Shown here: positions 3,538-58,940 of the stretch, piece after piece
How the letters are laid out: the number at the start of each line of letters is the position of its first letter
Position numbering within the stretch: position 1 is the stretch's first letter
NCBI GenBank assembly: GCA_020639315.1
Contig: JACKGM010000002.1
Span: forward strand, 286,321-350,320
Source: Candidatus Nomurabacteria bacterium
GTDB taxonomy: Bacteria; Patescibacteriota; Saccharimonadia; JAGOAT01
Length of the DNA stretch: 64,000 bases
Direction of reading: 5' to 3'
Notes under the pieces: model-generated
Databases searched by the model: none
What the model was told of the DNA's origin: nothing
Seen by the model: only the letters and a program-made list of their open reading frames with translations
Translations under genes and position numbers: made by a program

Positions 3538-5526
3538 TCAGTACACCACCACCGCCTGATTCGACAAGTTGCCGTGAATATTCATATTGGCCATCAATTG
3601 AGCGGCGGTCCAGTTGAGTTGACCGCTGACTGGATCATTGATAATAAAGCTAGTTGGGTTATCAGGATTTCCCCTAAAACCAATCACAGTCCTAGCATGT
3701 TCTCCTATGTATGCTCCTACCGCTGAACCGTTGGCGTTCCAATCAATCCTCTGCCCACTATAGCTATAGCCCCAAATCACTACCGGGTTATTGTTGGCAA
3801 TCTGGTTTGCAATAAAGCTAGCCGATACTCCATAATGCACGCTACTATTCGCTCCCAATGCTTGTGCTGCTGCTGCGATTGGTGGCGCGTAAACCCCATA
3901 GCCAGTCTTAGCCGACTGACTTCCCATCACATCTCCGACAAACATTTGGTAAGGATCATCCCATTGGTTGCCATCTACTTGCCATTGTTTCGGGTTGTAG
4001 CCCACAAGACTCATTATTTGATTTTCGGTCGCACTAATCCCTCGATATGCCAATGCCATCTTCAGAGCTGCTGATTCACAAGATAGCGGCATAGTCTGAT
4101 AAAAAAATGGTACTCCTAGTATTGTCACCCTCTCCTCAGTCACAAAGCTCCCCGTAAATCCACTACTACTAGGCAAACCAAAGCCAAGATTGACCACTCC
4201 AGCTCCAACTACTACCCGGTATTCAGAGCCATACCCCAAGCTGGTGTTTGGGACTACCAAAACCGTACTATCGCTAGCCCACTCCAGATGATAATCAAAG
4301 CTCGGCGCGACCGAAATCCTACTCTCGGCTGAGGCCCGATCGACAGCCTGGGAAAAATCTACCCGAAATCTAGAATTGATCGGTAGCCCATATCCCCCAG
4401 GAGAAATCGATGCATAAACTTCACCAACTGATCTAACCCTAAAGCTCCTAGGACTTTCGGCTTCCAATCTACCTCCAGCCTCAGTCCTAGCCCCAGTCAT
4501 AACTTCAATATCATAGCTATTTCCAGGAGTAATACCAGACAAGTCTAGCTTGATATTCTGAGCATCTAGCCAGCTATATCCGCCCAGATTGGTTTGAATA
4601 GTCGTCTCTTGCTGATTCATTGGTTCTGAGAAACTCAAAACCAGATTGGAATTTGGATTAAGGCTCTCAGTCTGATTGATACTTAGCTTTGGCTCCCTGA
4701 CTGTTTGAAACTTGTACTGCTTGACTGGCTTAAGCTGATCTTTGTAGTTATCGAATACTTCTACACCGTACTCGGTAGTCTGTCGATATTCCTGCTTGGG
4801 AACAAATTTGACCTCAGTCTTATCTTGAGATAAGATCTTGTCAAACTGAATCTCTGGCTGAGTTTTGATCTGAAAATCACTCAAGTCATTGTTGGGTTCG
4901 GTTAGCTTCAGGGTCAATGTTTGGTCAAGCTTGACATTGCTTGCCTGATCAAAATCTACAGCTTCGATCTCAGGGGCATCCTGAGTCCGAAACCCAAGCT
5001 CTAGATCTTGCTTATCACCAAATTTCTTGGCAATACCATTCAGCTTGACCCTATAATCAGTCCCGGTCTTCAGTCGTCCATCTGGCACCAAGACGATCTG
5101 ATCGACAAGACCCAATGCACCAGTATGCATAAGCTCCAAATGATAATCGAAGCTTGGCTCAGTCTCAACTGCAAAATTTTGATCGAGTCCAAAATTGGAC
5201 TTGATTTTCAGAGCCTGACCAATCTCTAGCTTGGCCTCGACTGGACTTAGCTCAAGCTCCCCCTCCAGGTAATGCCAAGTATTAGAGCCAACTATTCCAG
5301 CTAGTAGTCCCAACTGTAATACCATCAGGCCAACCAAAGCCAAGCCCAATCTTCTGGATATCAGGCGCAGAAAATAACCGAAACCAAATCTCCAAAATAA
5401 GCTCGGACTTAATTGTTCTATTTCTGGCTTGGGGTCTTTTGGGTTCTTATGATTCTGATTATTTTGGTAATTTTTGTTATTTTTGTTATTTTTATTTTTG
5501 TTTTTGTTTTTATGTTTGTGGCTCAA
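3538..5526 (-). CDS. membrane-anchored protein with Ig-like beta-rich repeats and a C-terminal peptidase C39-like (YvpB-type) domain
   Basis: K/N-rich N-terminal tail and one TM helix (LALVGLMVLQLGLLAGIVG). The C-terminal ~190 aa (FFYQTMPLSCESAALKMALAYRG...GEHARTVIGF) resembles C39_2 cysteine-peptidase-like domains. Confidence 0.6.
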   Translation of the reverse strand: MSHKHKNKNKNKNNKNNKNYQNNQNHKNPKDPKPEIEQLSPSLFWRFGFGYFLRLISRRLGLALVGLMVLQLGLLAGIVGSNTWHYLEGELELSPVEAKLEIGQALKIKSNFGLDQNFAVETEPSFDYHLELMHTGALGLVDQIVLVPDGRLKTGTDYRVKLNGIAKKFGDKQDLELGFRTQDAPEIEAVDFDQASNVKLDQTLTLKLTEPNNDLSDFQIKTQPEIQFDKILSQDKTEVKFVPKQEYRQTTEYGVEVFDNYKDQLKPVKQYKFQTVREPKLSINQTESLNPNSNLVLSFSEPMNQQETTIQTNLGGYSWLDAQNIKLDLSGITPGNSYDIEVMTGARTEAGGRLEAESPRSFRVRSVGEVYASISPGGYGLPINSRFRVDFSQAVDRASAESRISVAPSFDYHLEWASDSTVLVVPNTSLGYGSEYRVVVGAGVVNLGFGLPSSSGFTGSFVTEERVTILGVPFFYQTMPLSCESAALKMALAYRGISATENQIMSLVGYNPKQWQVDGNQWDDPYQMFVGDVMGSQSAKTGYGVYAPPIAAAAQALGANSSVHYGVSASFIANQIANNNPVVIWGYSYSGQRIDWNANGSAVGAYIGEHARTVIGFRGNPDNPTSFIINDPVSGQLNWTAAQLMANMNIHGNLSNQAVVVY

Positions 5527-8364: not shown

Positions 8365-9425
8365 TACTAAAACTTTTTAAGACACAATTTCCCATCATAC
8401 TCTAACCACATCAAAGAGTATGATCGGGCACTATTGGCACCCTCCGTTTTAAGTGTTATAAAATATAACTAATCGTTGTGGTTTGGGGTGAAGTGCCCGA
8501 CCAAGTAATAACCTGGGTCGATTTTGGACTCAAGTTATCTGGTAAGCCTCCTCGACATCCGCCGATGAGGAACCTAGGTCTGCTCCAGAACAGCACTCTG
8601 GAGCACGCCTAGGTCCTCACCTATTACTTACTAACTAGTTTTTGACACGTTAGAAGATTTGGATTGGTTATAGCTTTGGGCTATAACTGGTGCGAGGTGT
8701 GATATCAGTCGATTTGTTTGAGTTCTTGATCAACTTAATCACAATCATTATTTTTCCCTGAAGTTGAATATTCCTTTGCCTAGCATTGAATACTACTTAG
8801 TCTACCGAGGGTAAACTGATAGCACTTGCCCCATTCTCAATCATTTGACTGATTAAGAAAAAATATTCTTTTCTCCTGGTGATAATTCTAGTTTTTAAGA
8901 GCACAACTGCTATTCTCAATCTTGCGATCAAAAATAAAATTGCTCATTTTTCGTAAGCTTGTTACAAAAAGACTAGAGAAATCTTACCTGAAGAGTTTTC
9001 AGAGAGTTCCCTTACTATCATCAGAGTAAGGGGATCTTAAGCTAGGCAAAGGGGGTATAATCCTAGCTTAAGATTCCCCTACTCTTGATTACTGTCCTTG
9101 GGCAGTAAATGATAAATACTGGCGAAGCATCCTACCCCGTTCTAGCCTTGTCAGCCAGGCTATAGCAAAAAGCGATGTTCACGCACGCTTCTATGTAAGC
9201 TAACTGCCTCCTGACACCGACTCAAGGTATATTTCTATACCTATCTAACCCTCCGGGTAGAATCAATGCTATGTATTATCTAGATCGGTAGTCAATCAGG
9301 AGTACTGATCTCAAAACCTATCTAGGTAAGGAAATTTGATTTGGCTTATGAATTGTAAAAGAACCTTATTAAACTTGATCTTGTCAAGCTCAACGTTTCG
9401 CTGATGATTTAAACTTTCATCATGG
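8310..9425 (-). ncRNA. candidate ~1.1-kb structured non-coding RNA (unclassified)
   Basis: No ORF >=60 aa in any frame. Minus-strand promoter-like TTGACA (9458-9453), 17-nt spacer, TACGAT (9435-9430). Terminator at 8310-8364. Several 9-25-bp hairpins lie at 8394-8424, 8424-8500, 8567-8618, 8666-8688 and 9022-9087. No known RNA family recognised. Confidence 0.25.
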
Positions 9426-9672
9426 CTCTATCGTAGCAAAGCATTAGCATAATGTCAACACTTTTGTAGTAATAAATGTTACATAATCTGTACCTATATC
9501 TTATCTATATAATATGATTATCACTTTTCAATAGTTATACCAGTATAATATCGTTGTTATAATATATACATTATTTGCCATCTAAACCTTCTGTACCCCT
9601 ATTGCTATCGTATCCCTCTCGCGCTATCATCCCCTTCCCCCTTAAGGTCACTCTTGTATTAGACTTGTTCCT

Positions 9673-9836
9673 TATAGCAAACTCAAAACAAAACCGGACA
9701 ATTTGAGCTGTACTATAGAGAACTAGAAAGGTAGTTATTCTTAAGAGCCATATCCATAGATATGGTGAGTAAGAAAACTAGCTTTATAGACTCTAGAGTT
9801 GGGTCAAAAGTCTGGTTTTGTTTTTAACTTGCTATA
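9673..9836. mobile_element. MITE-A copy (164 bp, long imperfect palindrome)
   Basis: Ends are TATAGCAAACTCAAAACAAAACC and GGTTTTGTTTTTAACTTGCTATA. The two ~80-bp arms are mutually complementary around a central CCATATC-CATA-GATATGG hairpin. Near-identical copies at 43360 and 58728. Confidence 0.8.
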
Positions 9837-9989
9837 ACTAAGGTTTTCGGTCCCAAACCACCTACTTTGAAATATAATAAATCTTTTCACTTCATCACCT
9901 TAATTTTGTTAGGGCTCTTTACGAAAAGGCTATTCTAGTCTCAAGCTAGACAATTTTATGCTCAAAAATTATTGGGGAACAAGTCTATT

Positions 9990-10150
9990 AACCCTGTTGC
10001 CATATAAACTTGCGAGGTCAAAGCTGATGATTTTTATTCCAGACTAGCAAAACATGACAAAGCATAACAGGAGTTACGCTGCGAAGTGTTTTGCTAGTCT
10101 GGGGCAAAAATGGCACTTTTGAAGCCGTGAGGTTATATGGCAACAGGGTT
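9990..10150. mobile_element. MITE-B copy (161 bp)
   Basis: 17-bp perfect TIRs AACCCTGTTGCCATATA / TATATGGCAACAGGGTT. Inner inverted repeat CCAGACTAGCAAAACA. Flanked by ATT/ATT 3-bp direct repeats (9987-9989, 10151-10153). Confidence 0.85.
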
Positions 10151-10200
10151 ATTGTCATCCTCCGAACTTCAGAGAACTTACAGGTATCCAGAGCATTGTC

Positions 10201-10236
10201 ATCCCCCGTAATCCTCGCAAGAGGATTACGGGGGAT
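10201..10236. terminator. very strong hairpin (16-bp stem, GCAA loop), possible terminator ~95 nt downstream of trpS
   Basis: ATCCCCCGTAATCCTC-GCAA-GAGGATTACGGGGGAT read directly. A T-rich tract follows only on the plus strand, so function is uncertain. Confidence 0.3.
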
Positions 10237-10329
10237 CTAGTATTTGTATTTTGAATAAAACCTAATTCTCCTATTTATCTTACTATACAAAATAGCAGGG
10301 TTTATAAAAATTTTATACCCTTGTCCATA

Positions 10330-11419: not shown

Positions 11420-11482
11420 TTCGGGGTCAGACCCCGAACTCGACCTTGCTAACAGATATAAATCGTCGGGGTCTGACCCCGA
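11420..11482. repeat. REPIN-like doublet R1
   Basis: TCGGGGTCAGACCCCGA, spacer with AACAGATATAAA, then TCGGGGTCTGACCCCGA. Differs by 1 nt from R2. Confidence 0.85.
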
Positions 11483-11537
11483 CTTGTATTTTTTTTAGAC
11501 ACCATGGCCTACTCTTGTAACTACTCTTGTAATCTAC

Positions 11538-11798
11538 TTAACCGTATAGCTGCGAGTGTGTTCCTATCAAAGCAAATATGATTATTTCCTCTGACTCTCT
11601 ATAGTATAGAGCTCGCAAGTCTCCTGATATATTAATACTATAATAACTAGCAAATCTTCCCTTTAGTGGATGTAGTCTCAAAATTGGATTTACTGGATCA
11701 ATCAAAAACAGTCTTAATCGTTGATCAAATTGAACTTGTTGTTTGGCTGGTAATTTTTGATATTGTTGCTTAAACTTTTTGTCATATTTAATAATCAT
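11538..11798 (-). CDS. type II toxin, RelE/YafQ-family mRNA interferase
   Basis: 86 aa. Contains ...LHPLKGRFASYYSINISGDLRALYY...LIGTHSQLY, typical of YafQ/RelE toxins. Overlaps the upstream antitoxin gene by 4 nt. Confidence 0.75.
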   Translation of the reverse strand: MIIKYDKKFKQQYQKLPAKQQVQFDQRLRLFLIDPVNPILRLHPLKGRFASYYSINISGDLRALYYRESEEIIIFALIGTHSQLYG

Positions 11799-12064
11799 GA
11801 CTTCAGGTCTTGTAGGAAATCCTCAACATTATCAAATGCCGAGCTGATTTGACCGTCTTCCCTATCTCTCTCCACTTGAGCAATCTTCTCCTCGAGCCCT
11901 ATGCTCATCGGTTCTGGAACATATATCTCAATATGCCTAGTCACAACCACTTGTTTTAGATAGCTATTAATTAAGCTACTGAGTGTAATCCCAGCGTCCT
12001 TAGCGAGCTGTTGAGCAGCCCTCTTGGTATCATCATCTGTTTTGATAGTAATTACTTGGCTCAT
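11795..12064 (-). CDS. type II antitoxin, RelB/DinJ-like ribbon-helix-helix
   Basis: The likely start MSQVITIKTDDDTKRAAQQLAKDAGITLSSLINSYLKQ (ATG at 12064) is an RHH-type N-terminus. The ORF-track start at 12121 runs into repeat-adjacent sequence. Confidence 0.7.
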   Translation of the reverse strand: MSQVITIKTDDDTKRAAQQLAKDAGITLSSLINSYLKQVVVTRHIEIYVPEPMSIGLEEKIAQVERDREDGQISSAFDNVEDFLQDLKS

Positions 12065-12138
12065 AATACTAAATATATACGTAGTATTACATATTGTCAA
12101 CCGAGCCCTGCCATAAATCAAAATCTAGAATCATAGAA

Positions 12139-12200
12139 TCGGGGTCTGACCCCGAACTCGACCTTGCTAACAGATATAAATCGTCGGGGTCTGACCCCGA
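12139..12200. repeat. REPIN-like doublet R2
   Basis: Same architecture and near-identical sequence to R1 and R3. Lies ~130 nt upstream of the RAYT-like gene. Confidence 0.85.
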
Positions 12201-12328
12201 CTTGTATAGATTGAAGACTATTATACTTGCAAAATTACTGGGTTTGAGCAACAATGTAACTAACTTTAGTGTTAGACTCAACGATTACTGACTATCGTTG
12301 TCTCTGTAAAATATAATCAATACTAACT

Positions 12329-12979
12329 ATGCCAAATCCAAATACTATTAGACGGTACTATCCTAATACCTTTTACCACTTATACAACCGTGGTAATCAT
12401 AAGTTGCCCATATTCTTTAACCATCAAGAATATTTGAAGTTCTTGGCTATACTGAAGTTTTTATTAACATCAGACAACAAGACGGCTGATTCTCTAAAAA
12501 TATTTGCTAAACCTAGGAGAAAAGAGCAAAATTTTAGCAAGAAAATTGCGTTAGTTAGTTTCGTCTTAATGCCAAACCACTTCCATATGATAATATATGC
12601 AAAAGACCCGAAGGACATAGAGAAATTCATGGGTAGGTTAAGCATAAAATACACTCAAATAGTTAACTCTAATCACAACCTGGTAGGTCGACTCTTCCAG
12701 GGTGTATATAAGGCTAGACCAATATTATCAGAAATTGACCTGACTAACACTTCTGCTTATATACACCTAAACCCAAACGAACTCACTCCTGATAATTCAG
12801 ATTATTATCTTTCCTACCCCTATTCGAGTCTGTCCAAAAACCATACTACATTAGGGGTTATCAATTTTGATTTACTCACCGATAAGGCGGATATATCACT
12901 AATTCAATATCATCAGTATTTATTGAATAAATCAAAAAATTTCGTTGAAATGCAAATGATTAAAAAACATGGTATCTAA
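12329..12979 (+). CDS. REP-associated tyrosine transposase (RAYT)-like HUH/Y1 protein (IS200-like fold)
   Basis: 216 aa. N-terminal FYHLYNRGNHKLPIF, HUH motif LMPNHFHMII and tyrosine motif SAYIHLNP. No tnpB partner. Flanked by REPIN-like doublets on both sides. Confidence 0.8.
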   Translation: MPNPNTIRRYYPNTFYHLYNRGNHKLPIFFNHQEYLKFLAILKFLLTSDNKTADSLKIFAKPRRKEQNFSKKIALVSFVLMPNHFHMIIYAKDPKDIEKFMGRLSIKYTQIVNSNHNLVGRLFQGVYKARPILSEIDLTNTSAYIHLNPNELTPDNSDYYLSYPYSSLSKNHTTLGVINFDLLTDKADISLIQYHQYLLNKSKNFVEMQMIKKHGI

Positions 12980-13026
12980 ACTTCTGAGGTGACCAAACTA
13001 AGCTATAAGTTCTAGAGAATAGTCTT

Positions 13027-13110
13027 CCTGACTTCGTGACTTCGGGGTCTGACCCCGAACTCGACCTTGCTAACAGATATAAATCGTCGGGGTCTGACCC
13101 CGAAGTCAGG
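13027..13110. repeat. REPIN-like doublet R3 (extended outer stem)
   Basis: Core as in R1/R2, with an additional complementary CCTGACTTCG (13027-13036) / CGAAGTCAGG (13101-13110). Sits between convergent gene ends. Confidence 0.85.
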
Positions 13111-13112
13111 AT

Positions 13113-13421
13113 TTAGTAGTAGATTTTTATCCGACCTGTGATCACTACGATTAGTACTATTAGACCAAGGAATCTACGCCACAAGTTGACCCCGTAGCGA
13201 ATCTCCAAATAAGCCCAATAAATCAAGCTAATGTCTCTAATTAGCCCCAAATAATAACTGATAGAAAAGCGACTAAGTATCAGGCTCGCTAGTCCAAAAT
13301 AAAACCAAATCTTCAAGGGCAGATTAGCAGGTTGGGCGACTACAATCCTACCCTGACTATCCCTAAAGCATTTATCTACCAGGAAATTTTTACATTTACT
13401 AATCAACTGATTTGATTTCAT
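13113..13421 (-). CDS. small membrane protein (hypothetical)
   Basis: Hydrophobic segments present. The likely start is MKSNQL (13421), because the track start at 13478 overlaps the upstream giant gene by 41 nt. Confidence 0.4.
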   Translation of the reverse strand: MKSNQLISKCKNFLVDKCFRDSQGRIVVAQPANLPLKIWFYFGLASLILSRFSISYYLGLIRDISLIYWAYLEIRYGVNLWRRFLGLIVLIVVITGRIKIYY

Positions 13422-24547: not shown

Positions 24548-24612
24548 TGCGGGGTCTGACCCCGCACTTGACCCTTTTAACAGATATAAACTTGCGGGGT
24601 CTGACCCCGCAA
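24548..24612. repeat. REPIN-like doublet R4
   Basis: TTGCGGGGTCTGACCCCGCA...AACAGATATAAA...TTGCGGGGTCTGACCCCGCAA. The outer stem bases changed in a compensatory way relative to the other copies. Confidence 0.85.
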
Positions 24613-24625
24613 TGGGTTTTTTGGA

Positions 24626-25651
24626 TCAATCTTCGCTAGAGTTTTGAGGCAATAAAGCTCGAGAATTACCGATCTGGATAGCTAGCTTATCATGATCTTT
24701 GATTGATGACTCAAAAGCTCGCTGAGCGTTACCAAGGTGCTTCCCTGTCAACTGTAAATTGTCCCCGAGCTTACCTGACTGCGTAGCAATTGCCGAAATC
24801 GAAGCAATAATCTGCTTGGCCTTCTCTTCTATCTTCTCTCCCTCCATAGCTAGTAGTACCGTTTGCAAAAAATAATAAAATGAGTTTGGTGACACCATAA
24901 ATACTCTCTGGTCCACCCCATATTGCTGCAAATCAGTATCACTCAAAATATGATAATAAATGTTTTCACTGGGAATATACATCATGGCAAAATCAACAGT
25001 CCCCTCATCAGGTAGGATATACTTTTTGGATATTGAACGGATATGCACTTTGACGTCTTTAGCAAAATCTTTCAAGCTCTGCCCCGAATCTCCAGAATCA
25101 GCCTTCATAGCCTTAGTAAAGTTTTCCAAAGGAAATTTGCTATCAATCGGGATTAATCCATTCTTGGTCCTGATCACTGCATCGACTTTGACCCCCGAAC
25201 GAAATCCGTATTGCAAACTAAAGCTCCTCAAGGGCAACATTTGCGTCAAAAGGTCTTTCATCACCTGCTCACCAATATTACCTCGCAGCTTTGGTGACCT
25301 CAAGAAGTCTTGCAATTCCTTCATATTGCGACCAATCTCACTAAACTTGCCGACTTCTCTACTCAGATCCGAGTAAGCTTTAGCAGCATTGTTAAGCCGA
25401 TCTTGCATTTGACGCTGATTATCTGCTATCGAACGGTTGATATTGTCCAAATCAGCCTTCAATAGATTGACGGTACTATCATTTCTAATCTGTTCTCTTA
25501 ATACCTCGATTGACTTGGATTGAAAAATCATCTGCCTCAACACCAACCCAACTATCCCGATCAAAACCACAATCAAGGCCAATACCAAAATCTCCATCTG
25601 CTTATTATAAATCATAAGCATTATTCCCCCAAATATTAACCCTGTTGCCAT
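24626..25651 (-). CDS. rmuC: DNA recombination protein RmuC
   Basis: N-terminal TM, coiled coil and C-terminal RmuC-type domain (AMMYIPSENIYY, VSPNSFYYFL). The first 14 nt of the track ORF lie inside the MITE-B TIR, so the true start is probably an internal Met (25621 to 25597). Confidence 0.8.
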   Translation of the reverse strand: MATGLIFGGIMLMIYNKQMEILVLALIVVLIGIVGLVLRQMIFQSKSIEVLREQIRNDSTVNLLKADLDNINRSIADNQRQMQDRLNNAAKAYSDLSREVGKFSEIGRNMKELQDFLRSPKLRGNIGEQVMKDLLTQMLPLRSFSLQYGFRSGVKVDAVIRTKNGLIPIDSKFPLENFTKAMKADSGDSGQSLKDFAKDVKVHIRSISKKYILPDEGTVDFAMMYIPSENIYYHILSDTDLQQYGVDQRVFMVSPNSFYYFLQTVLLAMEGEKIEEKAKQIIASISAIATQSGKLGDNLQLTGKHLGNAQRAFESSIKDHDKLAIQIGNSRALLPQNSSED

Positions 25652-25798
25652 ATAACCTCACGGCTTCAAAACTGCCATTTTTGCCCCAGACTAGCAAAAC
25701 ACTTCGCAGCGTAACTCCTGTTGTGCTTTGTCGTGTTTTGCTAGTCTGGAATAAAAATCATCAGCTTTGACCTCGCAAGTTTATATGGCAACAGGGTT
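25638..25798. mobile_element. MITE-B copy (161 bp, reverse orientation) between divergent rmuC and tyrS
   Basis: Same TIRs as the other copies. ATT/ATT TSD at 25635-25637 and 25799-25801. Confidence 0.85.
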
Positions 25799-25838
25799 AT
25801 TGAAAGAAACCTCATCAGATGATAAGCTTATATCAGAT

Positions 25839-27050
25839 ATGACAAAAGTAGTTTTAGATCCAGACAAGATTGACCAAGCTTTGACTCGTTCGGTGGCAGA
25901 AATATTACCAACTCCAGAGGGACTCAAGCAACAGCTAACTAGCGGTCGACGACTAACCTTTTACCTTGGAATTGACCCGACAGCTGACTATATCCATTTG
26001 GGGCACTCGACCAATTATCTGATGCTAGAAAGGTTTCACCAGCTCGGTCACAAGATTATTGTTCTGATCGGTGATTTCACTGCAATGATTGGAGATCCTA
26101 GTGACAAGAGCTCGATGCGGGTTCAACTGACCAAGGAGCAAGTCTTAAAAAACCTCAAGACCTTCAAGTCCCAGATTGGCAAAATCCTAGACTTTGAATC
26201 TACAGACAACCCGATAGAGTTCAAATTCAATTCCGAGTGGCTTTCCAAGCTAACCTTCGAAGACTCAGTGGAATTGGCTTCAAACTTCACAGTCCAACAA
26301 ATGCTGGAGCGAGACTCCTTTGCCAAAAGAATATCTGAAAATAAGCCCCTATTTGTCCATGAGTTTTTCTATCCCTTGATGCAAGGTTATGATTCGGTAG
26401 CAATGGACGTCGATGTAGAGATCGGAGGGACTGATCAGACCTTTAATATGTTGGCTGGCCGCACTCTGCTCAAACGCTATAAATCCAAAGAAAAATACAT
26501 CATAGCCTCTACCCTACTGGTCAACCCAGAGACTGGCGAAAAGTTGATGAGCAAGAGCCTGGGGACAGGGGTCGGGCTAGATTTACCTGCCAAGGAAATG
26601 TACTTTAAAATCATGCAGTTGCCAGATGCGGGTATCATCCAATGCTTTATTGACTGCACCCGGCTGAGTCTAGATCAGATTGGTCAAATCGAGCTCAGAC
26701 TTCAATCTGGGGTTAACCCGCGTGATATCAAACAGGAATTAGCAACTGAGATTGTCACAATGTATCACAGTGCCAAACAGGCTGAACAGGCTCAAGCTGA
26801 GTGGACATCTGAAGTCAGCCAAGGCAATATCGCAAAAGACATTCGCAATATCCAGCTCGGTCCCAATGAATCACTGACAGAAGTAATAGTTAGGGTTGGG
26901 ATAGCAGGTAGTAAGAGCGAGGTTCGTCGACTATTAGCCCAGGGGGGGATCAAGGTTGATCAAAATAAAATTGGTTCAGACCTGACAAAGCTTGAGGATG
27001 GATCAATAGTCCAAGTCGGCAAGAAACATGCTTTTAGAATCGTGTTGTAG
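25839..27050 (+). CDS. tyrS: tyrosyl-tRNA synthetase
   Basis: YLGIDPTADYIHLGH (HIGH region), KLMSKSLG (KMSKS-type) and a C-terminal S4-like domain. The start is placed at MTKVVLDPDK because the track start (TTG 25767) and ATG 25785 lie inside MITE-B. Confidence 0.9.
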   Translation: MTKVVLDPDKIDQALTRSVAEILPTPEGLKQQLTSGRRLTFYLGIDPTADYIHLGHSTNYLMLERFHQLGHKIIVLIGDFTAMIGDPSDKSSMRVQLTKEQVLKNLKTFKSQIGKILDFESTDNPIEFKFNSEWLSKLTFEDSVELASNFTVQQMLERDSFAKRISENKPLFVHEFFYPLMQGYDSVAMDVDVEIGGTDQTFNMLAGRTLLKRYKSKEKYIIASTLLVNPETGEKLMSKSLGTGVGLDLPAKEMYFKIMQLPDAGIIQCFIDCTRLSLDQIGQIELRLQSGVNPRDIKQELATEIVTMYHSAKQAEQAQAEWTSEVSQGNIAKDIRNIQLGPNESLTEVIVRVGIAGSKSEVRRLLAQGGIKVDQNKIGSDLTKLEDGSIVQVGKKHAFRIVL

Positions 27051-27845: not shown

Positions 27846-27900
27846 ACTATAGTCTATTTTACCCCAAACATTCCAGCCTGAAAATAGCCCTATAGCCGCC

Positions 27901-27952
27901 TATAGCAAGCTCAAAACAAAACCGGACAATTTGAGCTGTACTATAGAGAACT
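27901..27952. mobile_element. truncated MITE-A (left ~50 bp only)
   Basis: TATAGCAAGCTCAAAACAAAACCGGACAATTTGAGCTGTACTATAGAGAACT is identical to the left arm of full copies, after which similarity is lost. Confidence 0.7.
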
Positions 27953-28063
27953 ATAGCCCCCGTAAAACAAAACCTGTTTGTTTTGGGTGATTAGATTATC
28001 GATCTAGAATTGTCGGATGCAAAAATCCTATTTATATCATGCTATAATTGCTATAATAAAATC

Positions 28064-29898: not shown

Positions 29899-29949
<51 letters not shown>

Positions 29950-29973
<24 letters not shown>

Positions 29974-30083
29974 TACAGAATTTCACACAATGCATTTGAT
30001 AATCTCAATCTAGACTAAATTCTACCTTGGGCTACTAGTCTCAATTTTAACTGAGTTTTGAGTTTACACAATTTAGTTTATAA
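29950..30083 (+). repeat. att-like repeat copy A (tRNA-Asn 3' end plus ~110 bp downstream)
   Basis: Homologous to 31721-31854. The 24 bp GTTCGAATCCTCTCCCCGGAGCCA are identical, and the downstream TTGATAATCTCAATCTAGACTA...GAGTTTACACAATTTAGTTTATAA is ~85-90% identical. Confidence 0.8.
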
Positions 30084-30361: not shown

Positions 30362-31414
30362 CTACTTCTTTTTATAGCGCGTTGTTCGTCCTTGACCAAT
30401 TCGTTCCACTTTTTTGATATCAAGCAACCTGTTGAGTGCCTGAGACACCGTTGCCCTGGCTACCCCAGTTTTATCTGCAATCTCACCTGGCATGGCTTCT
30501 TCAACAGTCTGCAGATAACGCCAGACCTTGATTTGCTGGGGCGACAGGGTTTTTTCTAGGTTTTCATTTTCAACCAGCTTTATTGCTTGCTGAGCCTGCT
30601 CTAAAAGAAGCCCCAGAAAATAGACAGTCCAGTCGTTTATAGAATCGTCTTCAGTGTCAAAGGTTGCTTGACTTCTTCGTAGTGCCAAATAGTAGTTTGA
30701 CTTACTTTGTTCGACTAGTTTCTCGTGTGAAACGTATGGGGTGTATTCATAGCCTCTAGACAAAAGCAAATAATTAGTTAGCAGCCTTGACATACGGCCG
30801 TTGCCATCTAAGAATGGGTGAATCTTTAGGAAAGATACAATAAAGTTGGATATGATCAACAAAGGATGGTATTTGTTCTCGTGTAGAGCTTCAGTGTACC
30901 AGTCTACAAGTTCTTGCATTTCTTTGGGGGTTAGATACGCGGGAGTAGTTTCAAAGATTACCGCCAAAATATTACCTTCAACATCAGTCATCTCTACCTT
31001 ATTTTCTAGGTTTTTGTATTCACCTTTGTGCCAAACATCTTTGCTGGAGTATTGCAGCAACTGAGCGTGTAAATATTTGATTGTATTTTCGCTAAAATCA
31101 ATCGATTTATGGTTATCAAAGATAAATTCTAGTGTTTCATAGTAGCCTTGAACTTCTTGGGTGTCTCTTTCTGAAAATTTCTGTATTTTGAGATTGTCTA
31201 TATATTCTTCAACATCAGTATCAGACATTTCTGAGCCTTCGATACGTGTTGAGGAGCCAGTCGAGGTAATCAACGTAGAGCGCTTTAATGTACCCAGAAT
31301 CTGCGGGTTTAAGTTTGTCTTTCCAGACCATCGTCCTTTTAACTCATCTATCTGAGCAACAAGATTAATAACTTCCTTGGGTAACTTTTCTATACGCTTG
31401 TCATTGCTATTCAT
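30362..31414 (-). CDS. Fic/DOC-family protein with C-terminal winged-helix DNA-binding domain
   Basis: Canonical Fic motif HPFLDGNGRMSRLL. The C-terminus GEIADKTGVARATVSQALNRLL is HTH-like. Confidence 0.9.
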   Translation of the reverse strand: MNSNDKRIEKLPKEVINLVAQIDELKGRWSGKTNLNPQILGTLKRSTLITSTGSSTRIEGSEMSDTDVEEYIDNLKIQKFSERDTQEVQGYYETLEFIFDNHKSIDFSENTIKYLHAQLLQYSSKDVWHKGEYKNLENKVEMTDVEGNILAVIFETTPAYLTPKEMQELVDWYTEALHENKYHPLLIISNFIVSFLKIHPFLDGNGRMSRLLTNYLLLSRGYEYTPYVSHEKLVEQSKSNYYLALRRSQATFDTEDDSINDWTVYFLGLLLEQAQQAIKLVENENLEKTLSPQQIKVWRYLQTVEEAMPGEIADKTGVARATVSQALNRLLDIKKVERIGQGRTTRYKKK

Positions 31415-31502
31415 AATCTAATATAGAGTATATATGAGATTATATTAGATTACAAGAGATTAACGCCAAAAAAACTTGATTAATCTACAAATGGAACTAA
31501 GA

Positions 31503-31686
31503 TATAGCAAGCTCAAAACAAAATCCAATTCCCTGACTAAGATAATAGAGAACCAGTAGTTGAGTTCTTCTACTGAATCATATCCATGATATGGTGAAGG
31601 AGAAAACTCAGTCTAATGGACTCTAGTGTCTAGTCAGGAATTGTGATTGATAGAAATATCTGATTTTGTTTTTAACTTGCTGTATA
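31503..31686. mobile_element. MITE-A subfamily-2 copy (184 bp), uninterrupted
   Basis: Ends are TATAGCAAGCTCAAAACAAAATC and GATTTTGTTTTTAACTTGCTGTATA. Collinear with the 50071-50419 copy except for the MITE-B insertion there. Confidence 0.8.
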
Positions 31687-31720
31687 AAAGCCATACAGAG
31701 GCAGGTTATCTATGCCAAAA

Positions 31721-31854
31721 GTTCGAATCCTCTCCCCGGAGCCAAGTTGAATTTTACAAAATACGGTTGATAATCTCAATCTAGACTAGATTCTACCCTA
31801 GACTACTAGTCTCAATTTTAACTGAGATTTGAGTTTACACAATTTAGTTTATAA
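31721..31854 (+). repeat. att-like repeat copy B (displaced 24-bp tRNA-Asn 3' end plus downstream homology)
   Basis: See copy A. It also shares 39 bp (GAGCCAAGTTGAATTTTACAAAATACGGTTGATAATCTC) with copy C at 38500. Confidence 0.8.
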
Positions 31855-38416: not shown

Positions 38417-38499
38417 ACTGCAACCAGTAGTTCCTTCATGGCATTTAACTTATACTCATCATAGTCCGCACTAGCAGTTCGCAACGTGTCCGCTACTGC

Positions 38500-38538
38500 G
38501 AGCCAAGTTGAATTTTACAAAATACGGTTGATAATCTC
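38500..38538 (+). repeat. att-like repeat copy C (39 bp)
   Basis: GAGCCAAGTTGAATTTTACAAAATACGGTTGATAATCTC is identical to 31739-31777. Confidence 0.75.
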
Positions 38539-43138: not shown

Positions 43139-43359
43139 GTGTCTAAGCCCATGCTCTAAACTATACTACTCTAGTCTAGAACCTTTACAACCTGGTCTTA
43201 AGGTATCAAAAGACTGCAATCGCCAAATCATTACAGATACTACTGTGGAGCAACCAAGGCCTATAACCAGAAACGCTACCTTAATAGATAGAGATAACTA
43301 CTAAATCTAATGGCTAAAGGAATAATATATCTAATGACATCAGCGGTATCGGGCTTGGT

Positions 43360-43523
43360 TATAGCAAGTTAAAAACAAAACCAGCCTTTTGACCCAACTC
43401 TAGAGTCTATAAAGCTAGTTTTCTTACTCACCATATCTATGGATATGGCTCTTAAGAAGAACTACCTTTCTAGTTCTCTATAGTACAGCTCAAATTGTCC
43501 GGTTTTGTTTTTAACTTGCTATA
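43360..43523. mobile_element. MITE-A copy (164 bp, reverse orientation)
   Basis: Reverse complement is ~95% identical by eye to 9673-9836. It directly abuts REPIN R6. Confidence 0.8.
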
Positions 43524-48556: not shown

Positions 48557-48745
48557 TTATCCGAAAAGTGGTTTACCCGAACTATAATGTAAGTTCAGCT
48601 CTTTTAACACTTCGATCAATGTACCTTGATCAAGATCCTCATACTTTTTAAAGCGAATACAACTTTTCCCGACACTCACCTTACCGAGTTTACCAGCGTA
48701 GCTTTCTGCAATATACTTACCATCTATCACTGCACAGAGATAGAT
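48557..48745 (-). pseudogene. C-terminal fragment of a DUF1801 (YdhG-like) gene split by IS30
   Basis: IYLCAVIDGKYIAESYAGKLGKVSVGKSCIRFKKYEDLD... continues the N-terminal fragment at 49827-50062 once the IS is removed. Confidence 0.75.
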
Positions 48746-49826
48746 CCTAGATTCTATTTCCAAATGCAACCTTAGCTAAGTCTAACTCACTATTAGGGTT
48801 AGAAGCAAGCCAATCGTAAACCTCTTGAGGTGTATGCCACCCTAGTCTTTTTCTAGGCTTGTTATTAAGCTCCCAGGCTATATCATCTAGCTCTTGTTGG
48901 GTTAGTCCCCTAATATCACTACGCTTAGGGAGATACGCCCTAAGTTGTCCGTTGATATTCTCGTTAGCTCCTCTCTGCCAAGAGCTATATGGATCAGCAA
49001 AGTATACCTCTATACCAATAGCTTCTGTGATTCTCTCGTGTTTAGTGAACTCAGTACCATTATCAAAGGTGATGGTATGGGCAACAAGACCTCTAAGCCC
49101 GTCTATTACTGCATTGGCTGTCTCCTCTGCTGTCTTACGGTCTAGTTTAGTAAATACTACTAAACTACTAATTCTCTCGTTTACAGTGTTAATAGCTTGT
49201 TTATGTAGGTATAAGACACTATCACCCTCCCAATCTCCTAGTCTGGTTCTTTGATTTACAACTTCTGGTCTTTTATGGATAGATACTCGATTTGGTATCT
49301 TAGACCTATGAGATGACCTACCTTGATTCTTGGTTCTCTTTTTCTTGCCTTGTCTAAGATATTGATAGAGCTTTTCCTCTTTAGCCCAAGAGCTAGTATA
49401 TATCCAGTTATAGATAGTTTCAGCAGAGACTGATGGGTGTCCTTCTTTCTTTAATCTACCTGAGATAGTTACTGGATTCCAGCCCTTCTGTAGGCAGTCT
49501 ACTACTCGACTGCGTAAACGATGATTAACTGGGTTATCTAAGATTGGTATCTGTCTAGATTCTTGTCGGTTCTCTTCATAGCTAGATTGAGCTATCCAGG
49601 TATGATAGATACCTTTACCATCAAGCCCTCTTTTGATCTCTCTACCTATAGTAGATTTATCTTTACCAATTCGCTTTGCTATTTGATTATTTGTATAATT
49701 GTCTTGGAGTAAGACTTCTATCTTACCCCGTTCTGCAGCCGTTAGGTGACTCATGCAATCCTTTCGTTTAATTGTATGTATTATTCTAACGGTTGCATTT
49801 GATATTGGAACTATGGGATCGCCATA
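48746..49826 (-). mobile_element. IS30-family insertion sequence (1081 bp)
   Basis: Imperfect 26-bp IRs (CCTAGATTCTATTTCCAAATGCAACC and GGTTGCATTTGATATTGGAACTATGG, 18/26). 3-bp TSD GAT at 48743-48745 and 49827-49829. Confidence 0.85.
48747..49754 (-). CDS. IS30-family DDE transposase
   Basis: N-terminal HTH (LTAAERGKIEVLL..NNQIAKRIGKDKSTIGREI), DWEGD, TFDNGTEF, YFADPYSSWQRGANEN. The start is placed at MSHL (49754). The track start at 49862 lies outside the IS. Confidence 0.9.
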   Translation of the reverse strand: MSHLTAAERGKIEVLLQDNYTNNQIAKRIGKDKSTIGREIKRGLDGKGIYHTWIAQSSYEENRQESRQIPILDNPVNHRLRSRVVDCLQKGWNPVTISGRLKKEGHPSVSAETIYNWIYTSSWAKEEKLYQYLRQGKKKRTKNQGRSSHRSKIPNRVSIHKRPEVVNQRTRLGDWEGDSVLYLHKQAINTVNERISSLVVFTKLDRKTAEETANAVIDGLRGLVAHTITFDNGTEFTKHERITEAIGIEVYFADPYSSWQRGANENINGQLRAYLPKRSDIRGLTQQELDDIAWELNNKPRKRLGWHTPQEVYDWLASNPNSELDLAKVAFGNRI

Positions 49827-50062
49827 TAATTTTTCTGATTCATAAGAGCAATAATTGGCCACCGACCAGGCTGCTTCATACTACTACTCTGATAGTCCAT
49901 CATCCCATACCCGAGGCCTACTCCTCCACCCATACCTTTGTAGATTGTCGGTTGACAATCCGGTGCATATTGCCGAATCAAAGCATCTACCTTACGCAAG
50001 TCAGACTCTCGCTCTCCAGTCTTGGCAAAGTATTCTTCGGCAGTCTTAGCTTCAATTTTCAT
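49827..50062 (-). pseudogene. N-terminal fragment of the IS30-split DUF1801 gene
   Basis: MKIEAKTAEEYFAKTGERESDLRKVDALIRQYAP...WPIIALMNQKNYMA. Joins in frame to the fragment at 48745. Confidence 0.75.
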
Positions 50063-50070
50063 TGTTATAT

Positions 50071-50419
50071 TATACAGCAAGTTAAAAACAAAATCAGATA
50101 TTTCTATTAATCACAATAACCCTGTTGCCATATAACCTCACGGCTTCAAAACTGCCATTTTTGCCCCAGACTAGCAAAACACTTCGCAGCGTAACTCCTG
50201 TTATGCTTTGTCGTGTTTTGGTATTCTGGAATAAAAAATCATCAGCTTTGACCTCGCAAGTTTATATGGCAACAGGGTTAATTCCTGACTAGACTCTAGA
50301 GTCCATTAGACTGAGTTTTCTCCTTCACCATATCATGGATATGATTCAGTAGAAGAACTCAACTACTGGTTCTCTATTATCTTAGTCAGGGAATTGGATT
50401 TTGTTTTGAGCTTGCTATA
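50071..50419. mobile_element. MITE-A subfamily-2 copy (reverse) carrying a nested MITE-B
   Basis: Collinear with the reverse complement of 31503-31686, except for a 162-bp insertion plus 3-bp duplication. Confidence 0.85.
50118..50279. mobile_element. MITE-B copy (162 bp) nested in MITE-A
   Basis: Same TIRs as the other copies. AAT/AAT TSD at 50115-50117 and 50280-50282. The uninterrupted target CACAATTCCTG is seen in the 31503 copy. Confidence 0.9.
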
Positions 50420-50431
50420 TCATCAATTACC

Positions 50432-50493: not shown

Positions 50494-50586
50494 ATTTGCG
50501 CTATTCTGATATCTGTCAAGGTCTGCTAGTAGGGCGTTAAAGACACTGGCAAGAAAATGGAAGTACTATATAATAGAATAATAACT

Positions 50587-51129
50587 ATGAAATTTGTTGC
50601 ACTACTACGCGGAATCAATGTCGGAGGCAAAAATAAAATCCCAATGTCCGAACTAAAGAGATTATTTGAGGACTTGGGTTTTGATAATGTCTTGACCTAT
50701 ATCAATTCAGGCAATGTTATTTTTGAAACAGAACCGACTGAGACACCTATCCTCAATCAAGCCTGCGAGCAAGCAATAGCCAAGCACTTTGGTTTTCATA
50801 TTGTCTGTTCGGTGATTGAGGCCAATCGACTTATTAAGGCTCTAGATAATAGTCCTAGTTGGTGGGATCAAGATGAAGGTAAGCACAATGCAATATTTGT
50901 CATAGCACCCAAAACTACTGCTCAAGTCATTGACGAGATAGGTGATACCAAGCCAGAGTACGAAAAGATTTCTGCCTTTGAGCCAATTATCTTCTGGTCG
51001 GCACCGATTGAAACTTTCAGTAAGACTCGCTATAGCCAGATAGTTGGCTCAAAGGCCTACCAATTTATCACAATTCGCAATGCCAATACTACCAAAAAGC
51101 TTGCTCAGCTCTGCAGATTGGAAACTTAA
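50587..51129 (+). CDS. DUF1697 family protein
   Basis: MKFVALLRGINVGGKNKIPMSELKRLFEDLGF...INSGNVIF is the family-typical N-terminus. The track start at 50557 adds 10 aa. Confidence 0.8.
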   Translation: MKFVALLRGINVGGKNKIPMSELKRLFEDLGFDNVLTYINSGNVIFETEPTETPILNQACEQAIAKHFGFHIVCSVIEANRLIKALDNSPSWWDQDEGKHNAIFVIAPKTTAQVIDEIGDTKPEYEKISAFEPIIFWSAPIETFSKTRYSQIVGSKAYQFITIRNANTTKKLAQLCRLET

Positions 51130-58727: not shown

Positions 58728-58888
58728 TATAGCAAGCTCAAAGCAAAACCGGACAATTTGAGCTGTACTATAGAGAACTAGAAAGGTAGTTCTTCTTAAG
58801 AGCCATATCCATAGATATGGTGAGTAAGAAAACTAGCTTTATAGACTCTAGAGTTGGGTCAAAAGTCTGGTTTTGGTTTTAACTTGCT
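58728..58888. mobile_element. MITE-A copy
   Basis: Near-identical to 9673-9836. Confidence 0.8.
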
Positions 58889-58940
58889 ATGGGATCAAGA
58901 ATTTATTTGCGACACAAGACAAAGTGTTAGTTCAATAAAA

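Follow-up and report, generated by a model that had tools for sequence, protein, structure and literature searches.

A MITE-B element nested in a MITE-A copy of a Saccharimonadia genome, and an IS5/PIF-Harbinger-like insertion sequence family with the same ends

The 64-kb stretch of DNA analysed here (64,000 nucleotides, hereafter the window) carries at positions 50071-50419 a copy of the repeat MITE-A that is interrupted by a copy of a second repeat, MITE-B. Did MITE-B enter this site by transposition, and if so, what moved it? The interrupted ("filled") MITE-A copy belongs to subfamily-2 and lies on the plus strand between a DUF1801-like gene (minus strand, start codon at 50060-50062) and a DUF1697 gene (50557-51129); it is 349 bp long with its insert, 184 bp being MITE-A proper, and its ends read TATACAGCAAG...CTTGCTATA. 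A second subfamily-2 copy, at 31503-31686 on the minus strand, is unfilled.

A preliminary description of this DNA held that the filled copy is collinear with the reverse complement of 31503-31686, that a 162-bp MITE-B (50118-50279) interrupts it with AAT on both sides, and that a lack of collinearity around the insertion would speak against this. Our alignment finds the two copies collinear base for base, with 185 of 187 positions identical; once MITE-B is taken out, 185 positions match, 2 do not, and the additional AAT accounts for the one gap, of 3 nt. The same result comes from the repeat-finder arms (I4 and I21) that join the two copies, 31640-31687 with 50070-50117 (48 nt, 98%) and 31501-31642 with 50280-50421 (142 nt, 99%), which in the unfilled copy overlap by exactly 3 nt, 31640-31642. 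This triplet (AAT on the minus strand) is present once in the unfilled copy and twice in the filled copy, at 50115-50117 and 50280-50282 on the plus strand, as direct reading of the sequence, the repeat arms and the alignment all show, and the filled/empty comparison identifies it as a target-site duplication. MITE-B was inserted into MITE-A, and a sister copy keeps the unfilled site; the insertion and the 3-bp duplication are direct observations, made on one filled/empty pair. The two MITE-A copies lie in unrelated surroundings, so they are separate insertions and segmental duplication is excluded, and since these hosts differ at only 2 of 187 positions the nested event postdates a recent duplication of MITE-A.

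The direction of the change is not given by the sequences alone, and the order could in theory be the reverse: MITE-B would already have been present in the ancestral MITE-A, and the copy at 31503-31686 would have lost it by precise excision, with one AAT left behind. Precise excision is common among related eukaryotic elements, mPing for example, which lends this idea some plausibility. However, it calls for two events in place of one, copying of the 349-bp composite by the MITE-A machinery and then clean loss of the passenger, and the MITE-A subfamily-1 copies are all without MITE-B; we consider excision improbable and take insertion as the direction below.

The terminal 17-mer of MITE-B, AACCCTGTTGCCATATA, occurs six times in the window, in three inward-facing pairs (9990/10150, 25638/25798 and 50118/50279), where 0.18 matches are expected by chance and none of 100 shuffles reached six. 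The inverted ends had been given as 17 bp and perfect; they are perfect, but their length is 18 bp (AACCCTGTTGCCATATAA) in all three copies. Copy B1 (161 bp, 9990-10150, minus strand) lies 180 bp downstream of trpS between ATT at 9987-9989 and ATT at 10151-10153, copy B2 (161 bp, 25638-25798, plus strand) lies between the divergent rmuC and tyrS genes with ATT at 25635-25637 and at 25799-25801, and copy B3 (162 bp, 50118-50279, plus strand) is the one that interrupts MITE-A between AAT and AAT. The coordinates and ATT flanks first reported for B1 and B2 hold, and the pairwise identity of the three copies once oriented (B1 is opposite to the other two) is 97.5-98.1%, higher than the roughly 95% first estimated, with 3-4 substitutions and 0-1 indel per 161-162 bp. 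All three are intergenic, B3 by virtue of the position of its MITE-A host between the DUF1801-like and DUF1697 genes. The only ORFs in MITE-B are mechanical ones of up to 55 aa, and the peptide of such an ORF, used as a query for homologues and copy number, gave no match. MITE-B is thus short and non-coding, with inverted ends, a target duplication and dispersed, nearly identical copies (three in 64 kb and a fourth in metagenome contig L108), as expected of a MITE. Both ends of B2 (25635-25655 and 25781-25801) also carry an outward-facing ATG, ATGGCAACAGGGTT, that reads MATGL..., and the mechanical ORFs of rmuC (24626-25651) and tyrS (25767-27050) consequently begin within the MITE or run into it.

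Along its whole length MITE-B is imperfectly palindromic and folds into a single hairpin, with dG -40.7 kcal/mol (shuffles -15.1; z -8.2). Such a fold, in copies that are all intergenic and beside gene starts or ends, might mean that MITE-B in the first place serves the host as a structured RNA or DNA hairpin (a terminator, small RNA or regulatory site) and that its spread was secondary. Whole-length palindromes are, on the other hand, typical of MITEs, MITE-B matched no Rfam family, a look for promoter- or terminator-like sites within B3 found none, and the target duplication and the ends that MITE-B has in common with an insertion sequence (below) suffice without any host function, so a primary host role seems very improbable.

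What, then, could have moved it? A tblastn search of the 64-kb window found no cognate transposase for MITE-B, in agreement with the preliminary description, which had reported none with matching ends there and had suggested looking elsewhere for an autonomous element with MITE-B ends. Such a partner family exists outside the window, in other metagenomes. A scan of 185,579 species-representative genomes with the 18-mer gave 28 single matches, about the chance level. One of these is real (L009, a Saccharibacteria MAG contig); the other 27 are chance-like 18-mers with no second inverted end, transposase or MITE-B similarity. L009 contains a 76-bp mini-MITE with MITE-B ends and, 600 bp from it, a decayed (deleted) insertion sequence whose left end matches the mini-MITE across most of its first ~30 nt. 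The scan of metagenomes returned 100 loci, seven of them real (L108, L067, L050, L099, L066, L122 and L124), and that of viral contigs had no match to the end sequence. L067 has a 164-bp MITE-B relative (77-78% identity) flanked by AAT/AAT and L050 a partial one, while L099, L066, L122 and L124 hold elements of 1084-1143 bp bounded by MITE-B-type ends. The L099 element (177-1260, 1084 bp) matches MITE-B at 20 of 20 positions at both ends and has an intact 320-aa ORF; the transposase ORFs of L066 and L122 are also intact, and L124 carries a partial MITE-B relative (1-91) and a frameshifted insertion sequence (4031-5129) 3.9 kb apart on the same contig, a co-occurrence that is directly observed. 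There is one long ORF per insertion sequence in L099, L066 and L122, with no second Myb/SANT-like ORF. Loci retrieved with the protein as query, a route that takes no account of the ends (L131-L136, L143 and L144), have MITE-B-type ends about 65 bp upstream of the ATG and, wherever the contig extends that far, about 55 bp after the stop codon. In all, a DDE_Tnp_4-type transposase lies between exactly MITE-B-type ends at 12 independent loci. MITE-B and these insertion sequences share only their 18-20 bp ends; MITE-B is therefore not a simple internal deletion of any insertion sequence that we recovered, and it is through the ends that the two are paired.

The 320-aa transposase matches Pfam DDE_Tnp_4 (PF13359, E = 3e-24, 85.8 bits against a cut-off of 24.8), HTH_Tnp_4 (E = 3e-10) and PF01609 (DDE_Tnp_1 type, E = 1e-9), and residues D146, D221 and E265 are invariant across 10 transposase sequences, down to 40% identity. 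Among NCBIfam models transpos_IS5_4 fits it best, but it does not pass the curated IS5 model NF033581 (62.6 bits, cut-off 140). The HTH_Tnp_4 and DDE_Tnp_4 matches place the ~1.1-kb insertion sequence, as a probable member, in the IS5 / PIF-Harbinger superfamily. Homologues number 2557 at E <= 1e-10, among them many intact genes of 319-324 aa in metagenomes; the closest lie mostly on contigs of 1.0-1.3 kb, the pattern of a collapsed multi-copy repeat, and those deposited are named only "transposase" or "transposase family protein". A more distant relative (29-35% identity, split into two ORFs) is present at L133 955-1814, beside a copy with MITE-B-type ends and an IS110-like fragment. A PDB profile search with positions 27-114 of the transposase alignment (A6) matched only TAL-effector repeats (AvrBs3, Hax3; E = 1e-8 to 1e-5); the motif in common is VQ.LLPVL, no stretch passes alone, and we treat these matches as probably spurious.

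A transposase of a different kind lies much closer, 260 bp from MITE-B: an IS30-family gene (48747-49862) in an element at about 48750-49812 with a 371-aa product (HTH_38 and rve domains), whose imperfect ends, 20 bp each, lie at 48752-48771 and 49791-49810. As IS30 elements, too, duplicate 2-3 bp, both proximity and duplication length would allow this one to have moved MITE-B. Its ends, TTCTATTTCCAAATGCAACC and GGTTGCATTTGATATTGGAA, nevertheless have nothing in common with AACCCTGTTGCCATATAA, as the preliminary description had also noted, and the transposase found between exactly MITE-B ends at the 12 independent loci is of another family; IS30 as the driver of MITE-B is effectively refuted. 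The IS30 element also splits an apparent DUF1801-like gene (recognised by eye, no Pfam match) into an N-terminal part at 49811-50062 and a C-terminal part at 48557-48769.

The reading that we prefer, at a probability of roughly 85%, is that MITE-B is a non-autonomous, non-coding element mobilised in trans by the DDE transposase of the ~1.1-kb insertion sequence with the same 18-20-bp ends. The transposase would bind the AACCCTGTTGCCATATAA ends and excise the element, which would then be pasted into an A-N-T target (mostly AAT or ATT) with a 3-nt staggered cut, and repair of the gaps would leave the triplet duplicated; one such event would have placed MITE-B in the AAT at position 45-47 of the MITE-A copy that is now at 50071-50419. 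The shared ends and the domains and catalytic triad of the transposase are observed directly, and we infer the cut-and-paste chemistry, the mobilisation in trans and a working copy of the insertion sequence in this genome.

The target preference is clear across the MITE-B/insertion sequence family, where 29 of the 34 flanking triplets have the form A-N-T (P about 1e-25 for base frequencies of 30% A and T), N being A in 13, T in 11, G in 3 and C in 2. These elements define an insertion sequence/MITE family, unnamed until now, whose target is A-N-T. The duplication itself is less uniform. Matching triplets are found on both sides of 5 of the 13 copies with both flanks visible (B1, B2, B3, L067 and L144), the autonomous copy of L144, on a 29-kb contig, having a perfect AGT/AGT duplication, and in the other eight, all on metagenome or MAG contigs, the triplets do not match and yet are still mostly A-N-T. 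Given the A-N-T spectrum, triplets would match by chance in about 27% of copies, and 5 of 13 is not significant alone, so that outside the window and the plasmid records the 3-bp duplication is not statistically established; it rests mainly on the filled/empty pair, the window copies and three relatives on cyanobacterial plasmids with AAT/AAT each. In the mismatched copies a 1.1-kb multi-copy repeat may have been joined to the wrong flank during assembly, or copies may have recombined. The 3-bp A/T-rich target-site duplication first proposed is thus borne out by the filled/empty pair, the window copies, L067 (AAT/AAT), L144 (AGT/AGT) and the cyanobacterial AAT/AAT repeats; the absence of 3-bp repeats at other genomic copies, which had been named as an observation against it, applies to the eight mismatched copies and not to L067, L144 or the plasmid relatives.

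Other ways of reading the flanks were considered. With the element boundaries set at ACCCTG...CAGGGT, every copy allows a TA duplication of the IS630 / Tc1-mariner type; this reading is excluded because the empty site would then read CACAATAATTCCTG, and CACAATTCCTG is observed. A 1-bp duplication, with T...A inside the element, gives the same sequence as the 3-bp reading and is indistinguishable from it; we keep 3 bp for the symmetric ends that it gives. The A-N-T flanks could also be an extension of the inverted ends (AAT...ATT), which fits L009 and L136, but the flanks are direct repeats in the window and on the cyanobacterial plasmids and the empty site is incompatible with such an extension. 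Shifts of the element boundary were tried for direct repeats of the form TWA, and none gives TWA.

Mobilisation had been described as "recent or ongoing". A fourth copy of MITE-B, identical to B1 at 161 of 161 positions, lies at a different locus in L108, which gives that description partial support, while against it the window copies differ by about 2%. It is possible, though short of probable, that MITE-B is a relic here, that is, that the nested insertion is real and the family immobile with no working transposase left: besides the ~2% divergence, the window has no transposase, two of the recovered autonomous copies are decayed (L124 is frameshifted and L009 deleted), and readable strains with 100% identical flanking DNA seem to share the MITE arrangement as far as their contigs reach. 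The B1-identical copy at another locus in another sample argues the other way, as do the MITE-A hosts, only 2 of 187 positions apart, with a nested event that followed a recent MITE-A duplication, and the abundance in metagenomes of intact transposase genes (319-324 aa), most of which lie on contigs as long as the insertion sequence, as would be expected of multi-copy repeats. In L108 (762-1064) the B1-identical MITE-B is flanked by TAT/AAT and has a 53-nt fragment of MITE-A subfamily-1 on one side but unrelated DNA on the other; either the locus is rearranged or the short-read contig is chimeric. At 10196-10237 B1 is adjoined by a small hairpin repeat, TTGTCATCCCCCGTAATCCTC...GAGGATTACGGGGGATC, and a related one adjoins the identical MITE-B of L108 (about 1000-1045) in the opposite orientation.

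Close strains were compared through trpS. The TrpRS encoded in the window has the same sequence as that of MAG GCA_020428505.1 (100% identity), and over 4.2 kb the contig of this MAG agrees with the window at 99.9% identity. The closest named relatives of the protein share 79% and 52-55% identity with it and belong without exception to Candidatus Saccharibacteria, Saccharimonadia or Patescibacteria, so that a Saccharibacteria host is very probable, judged from this one protein. Every short-read assembly of this organism is interrupted by the MITE repeats: those that extend to them (L001, L002, L138, L150 and L151) stop at the edge of a MITE-A or MITE-B, L001 and L002 inside B1, which confirms that MITE-A and MITE-B are multi-copy repeats, and the other assemblies that reach the B3 region all end at the MITE-A edge, 50392-50395. 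At the B1 locus, trpS is followed directly by protein-coding genes in L148 and L149, whose trpS DNA is about 99-99.7% identical to that of the window, and in the relative L145, where these genes encode proteins of 85 aa and 258 aa and a PHP-domain protein. The window, GCA_020428505.1 and SRR12358676 diverge from those strains just past the trpS stop codon (region 9576-10316), and where sequence of this lineage exists it has the hairpin repeat, MITE-B and MITE-A in place of genes. The repeat-bearing segment after trpS therefore differs between close strains, though it offers no clean empty site; L145 (79% identical) does not serve as an orthologous one, its region being rearranged and not collinear. 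For an insertion polymorphism at B2, database records of TyrRS with the likely true start were sought and none was found. Repeat-flanked segments also differ between strains that are ~99% identical: a toxin-antitoxin cassette (11490-12138, RelB/YafQ genes at about 11538-12064) lies between direct REP doublets at 11421-11500 and 12139-12218, and L148 is without exactly this 718-bp unit while being 99.7-99.9% identical on both sides, a REP-bounded strain indel.

Prokaryotic MITEs that are paired with insertion sequences through shared ends have been reviewed (PMC3184786, PMC10969869). Like MITE-B, the members of such pairs (Nezha/ISNpu3, Chunjie, MITEAba12 and Correia) are small and non-coding, with perfect inverted ends, a target duplication, multiple copies, an intergenic position and a whole-element hairpin; the sequence of MITE-B is new among them. 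The mobility of Nezha was inferred from a filled/empty comparison (PMC3184786), with the empty site in a sister species, whereas that of MITE-B lies inside a second MITE of the same genome. Nezha/ISNpu3 is not a relative of MITE-B, its direct repeat being 10 bp (PMC6042816) as against 3 bp. Filled and empty sites in one genome, with a MITE within a MITE, make this a textbook-quality case of bacterial MITE transposition; MITE-B is nonetheless clean but ordinary bacterial transposon biology and leaves the understanding of MITEs unchanged. What is new is the partner family and its A-N-T target.

The partner resembles the IS5 family in its ~1.1 kb length, single transposase gene, short inverted ends, DDE transposase and 3-bp duplication, and the IS5 subgroups ISL2, IS1031 and IS427 make duplications of 2-4 bp. 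It differs in that it scores far below the NCBIfam cut-off, matching Pfam DDE_Tnp_4 and HTH_Tnp_4, and in that its ends start with AACCC, in contrast to the GA/GG ends of the IS5 groups. Among the closest known elements are unnamed cyanobacterial insertion sequences carried by Nostoc punctiforme pNPUN02 and by plasmids of Leptolyngbya boryana; their transposases are 40-42% identical to that of L099 over 91% of its length; the three deposited records have elements of about 1.0 kb with a single ORF, but their ends (AGAGTTGTTGGGAAATA) are different and they come from a different phylum. The Pfam family DDE_Tnp_4 is also the catalytic domain family of eukaryotic PIF/Harbinger transposases, and the Tourist and mPing MITEs share only their ends with their partner elements, as MITE-B does with its own autonomous element. 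The PHIS superfamily, which is related to IS5, includes canonical Harbinger elements with 3-bp duplications (PMC12730594). These are made, as for MITE-B, at a short A/T-rich target, but the bacterial partner differs in its host, its single ORF and a target of A-N-T rather than TWA (TAA/TTA). A limited collection of papers contained no description of MITEs in Saccharibacteria. A more far-reaching reading, possible though short of probable, is that no insertion sequence/MITE pair had been described before from Saccharibacteria (Candidate Phyla Radiation), that this one is still active, and that together with MITE-A, REP/RAYT and IS30 it drives structural differences between strains in a very small genome; if so, the 320-aa transposase and its simple 18-bp ends might be developed into a native transposon tool for bacteria that are hard to manipulate.

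The repeat load of the window is unusually dense, with six MITE-A, three MITE-B, eight REP doublets with a RAYT-like gene and one IS30 in 64 kb. Besides the two subfamily-2 copies there are MITE-A subfamily-1 copies at 9673-9842 (plus strand) and 43354-43523 (minus strand), both flanked by TA, and at 58728-58890 (plus strand), and a truncated fragment at 27899-27953 (plus strand) in which only the first ~55 nt match. The flanks of MITE-A are TA at 9 of 10 ends (five copies), which is compatible with an IS630/mariner-type element, and its subfamilies share ~25-nt ends and a central palindrome (CATATCCAT.GATATGG) and differ elsewhere. The eight REP-like doublets (TCGGGGTCTGACCCCGA...AACAGATATAAA...TCGGGGTCTGACCCCGA) lie at 11421-13121, with further copies at 24549, 29593, 43526, 53422 and 56504; three of them surround a Y1_Tnp (RAYT-like) gene at 12329-12979 in a REPtron-like arrangement, and L145 has a variant of the REP stem, CGAGGTCAGACCTCG, that is changed on both stem sides. 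The 3' end of tRNA-Asn (29899-29973) is repeated, from 29957-30006, at 31728-31777 and 38489-38538, like the att sites of tandem integrated islands; the first unit contains a Fic-domain gene (30362-31414) and the unfilled MITE-A, and no integrase was recognised. Finally, a hairpin at 8987-9086 (stem about 26 bp, dG -42 kcal/mol, z -4.5), for which a search of Rfam gave no family and only chance miRNA-like matches, is 92% conserved in L145, where the surrounding DNA is only 68-79% identical.
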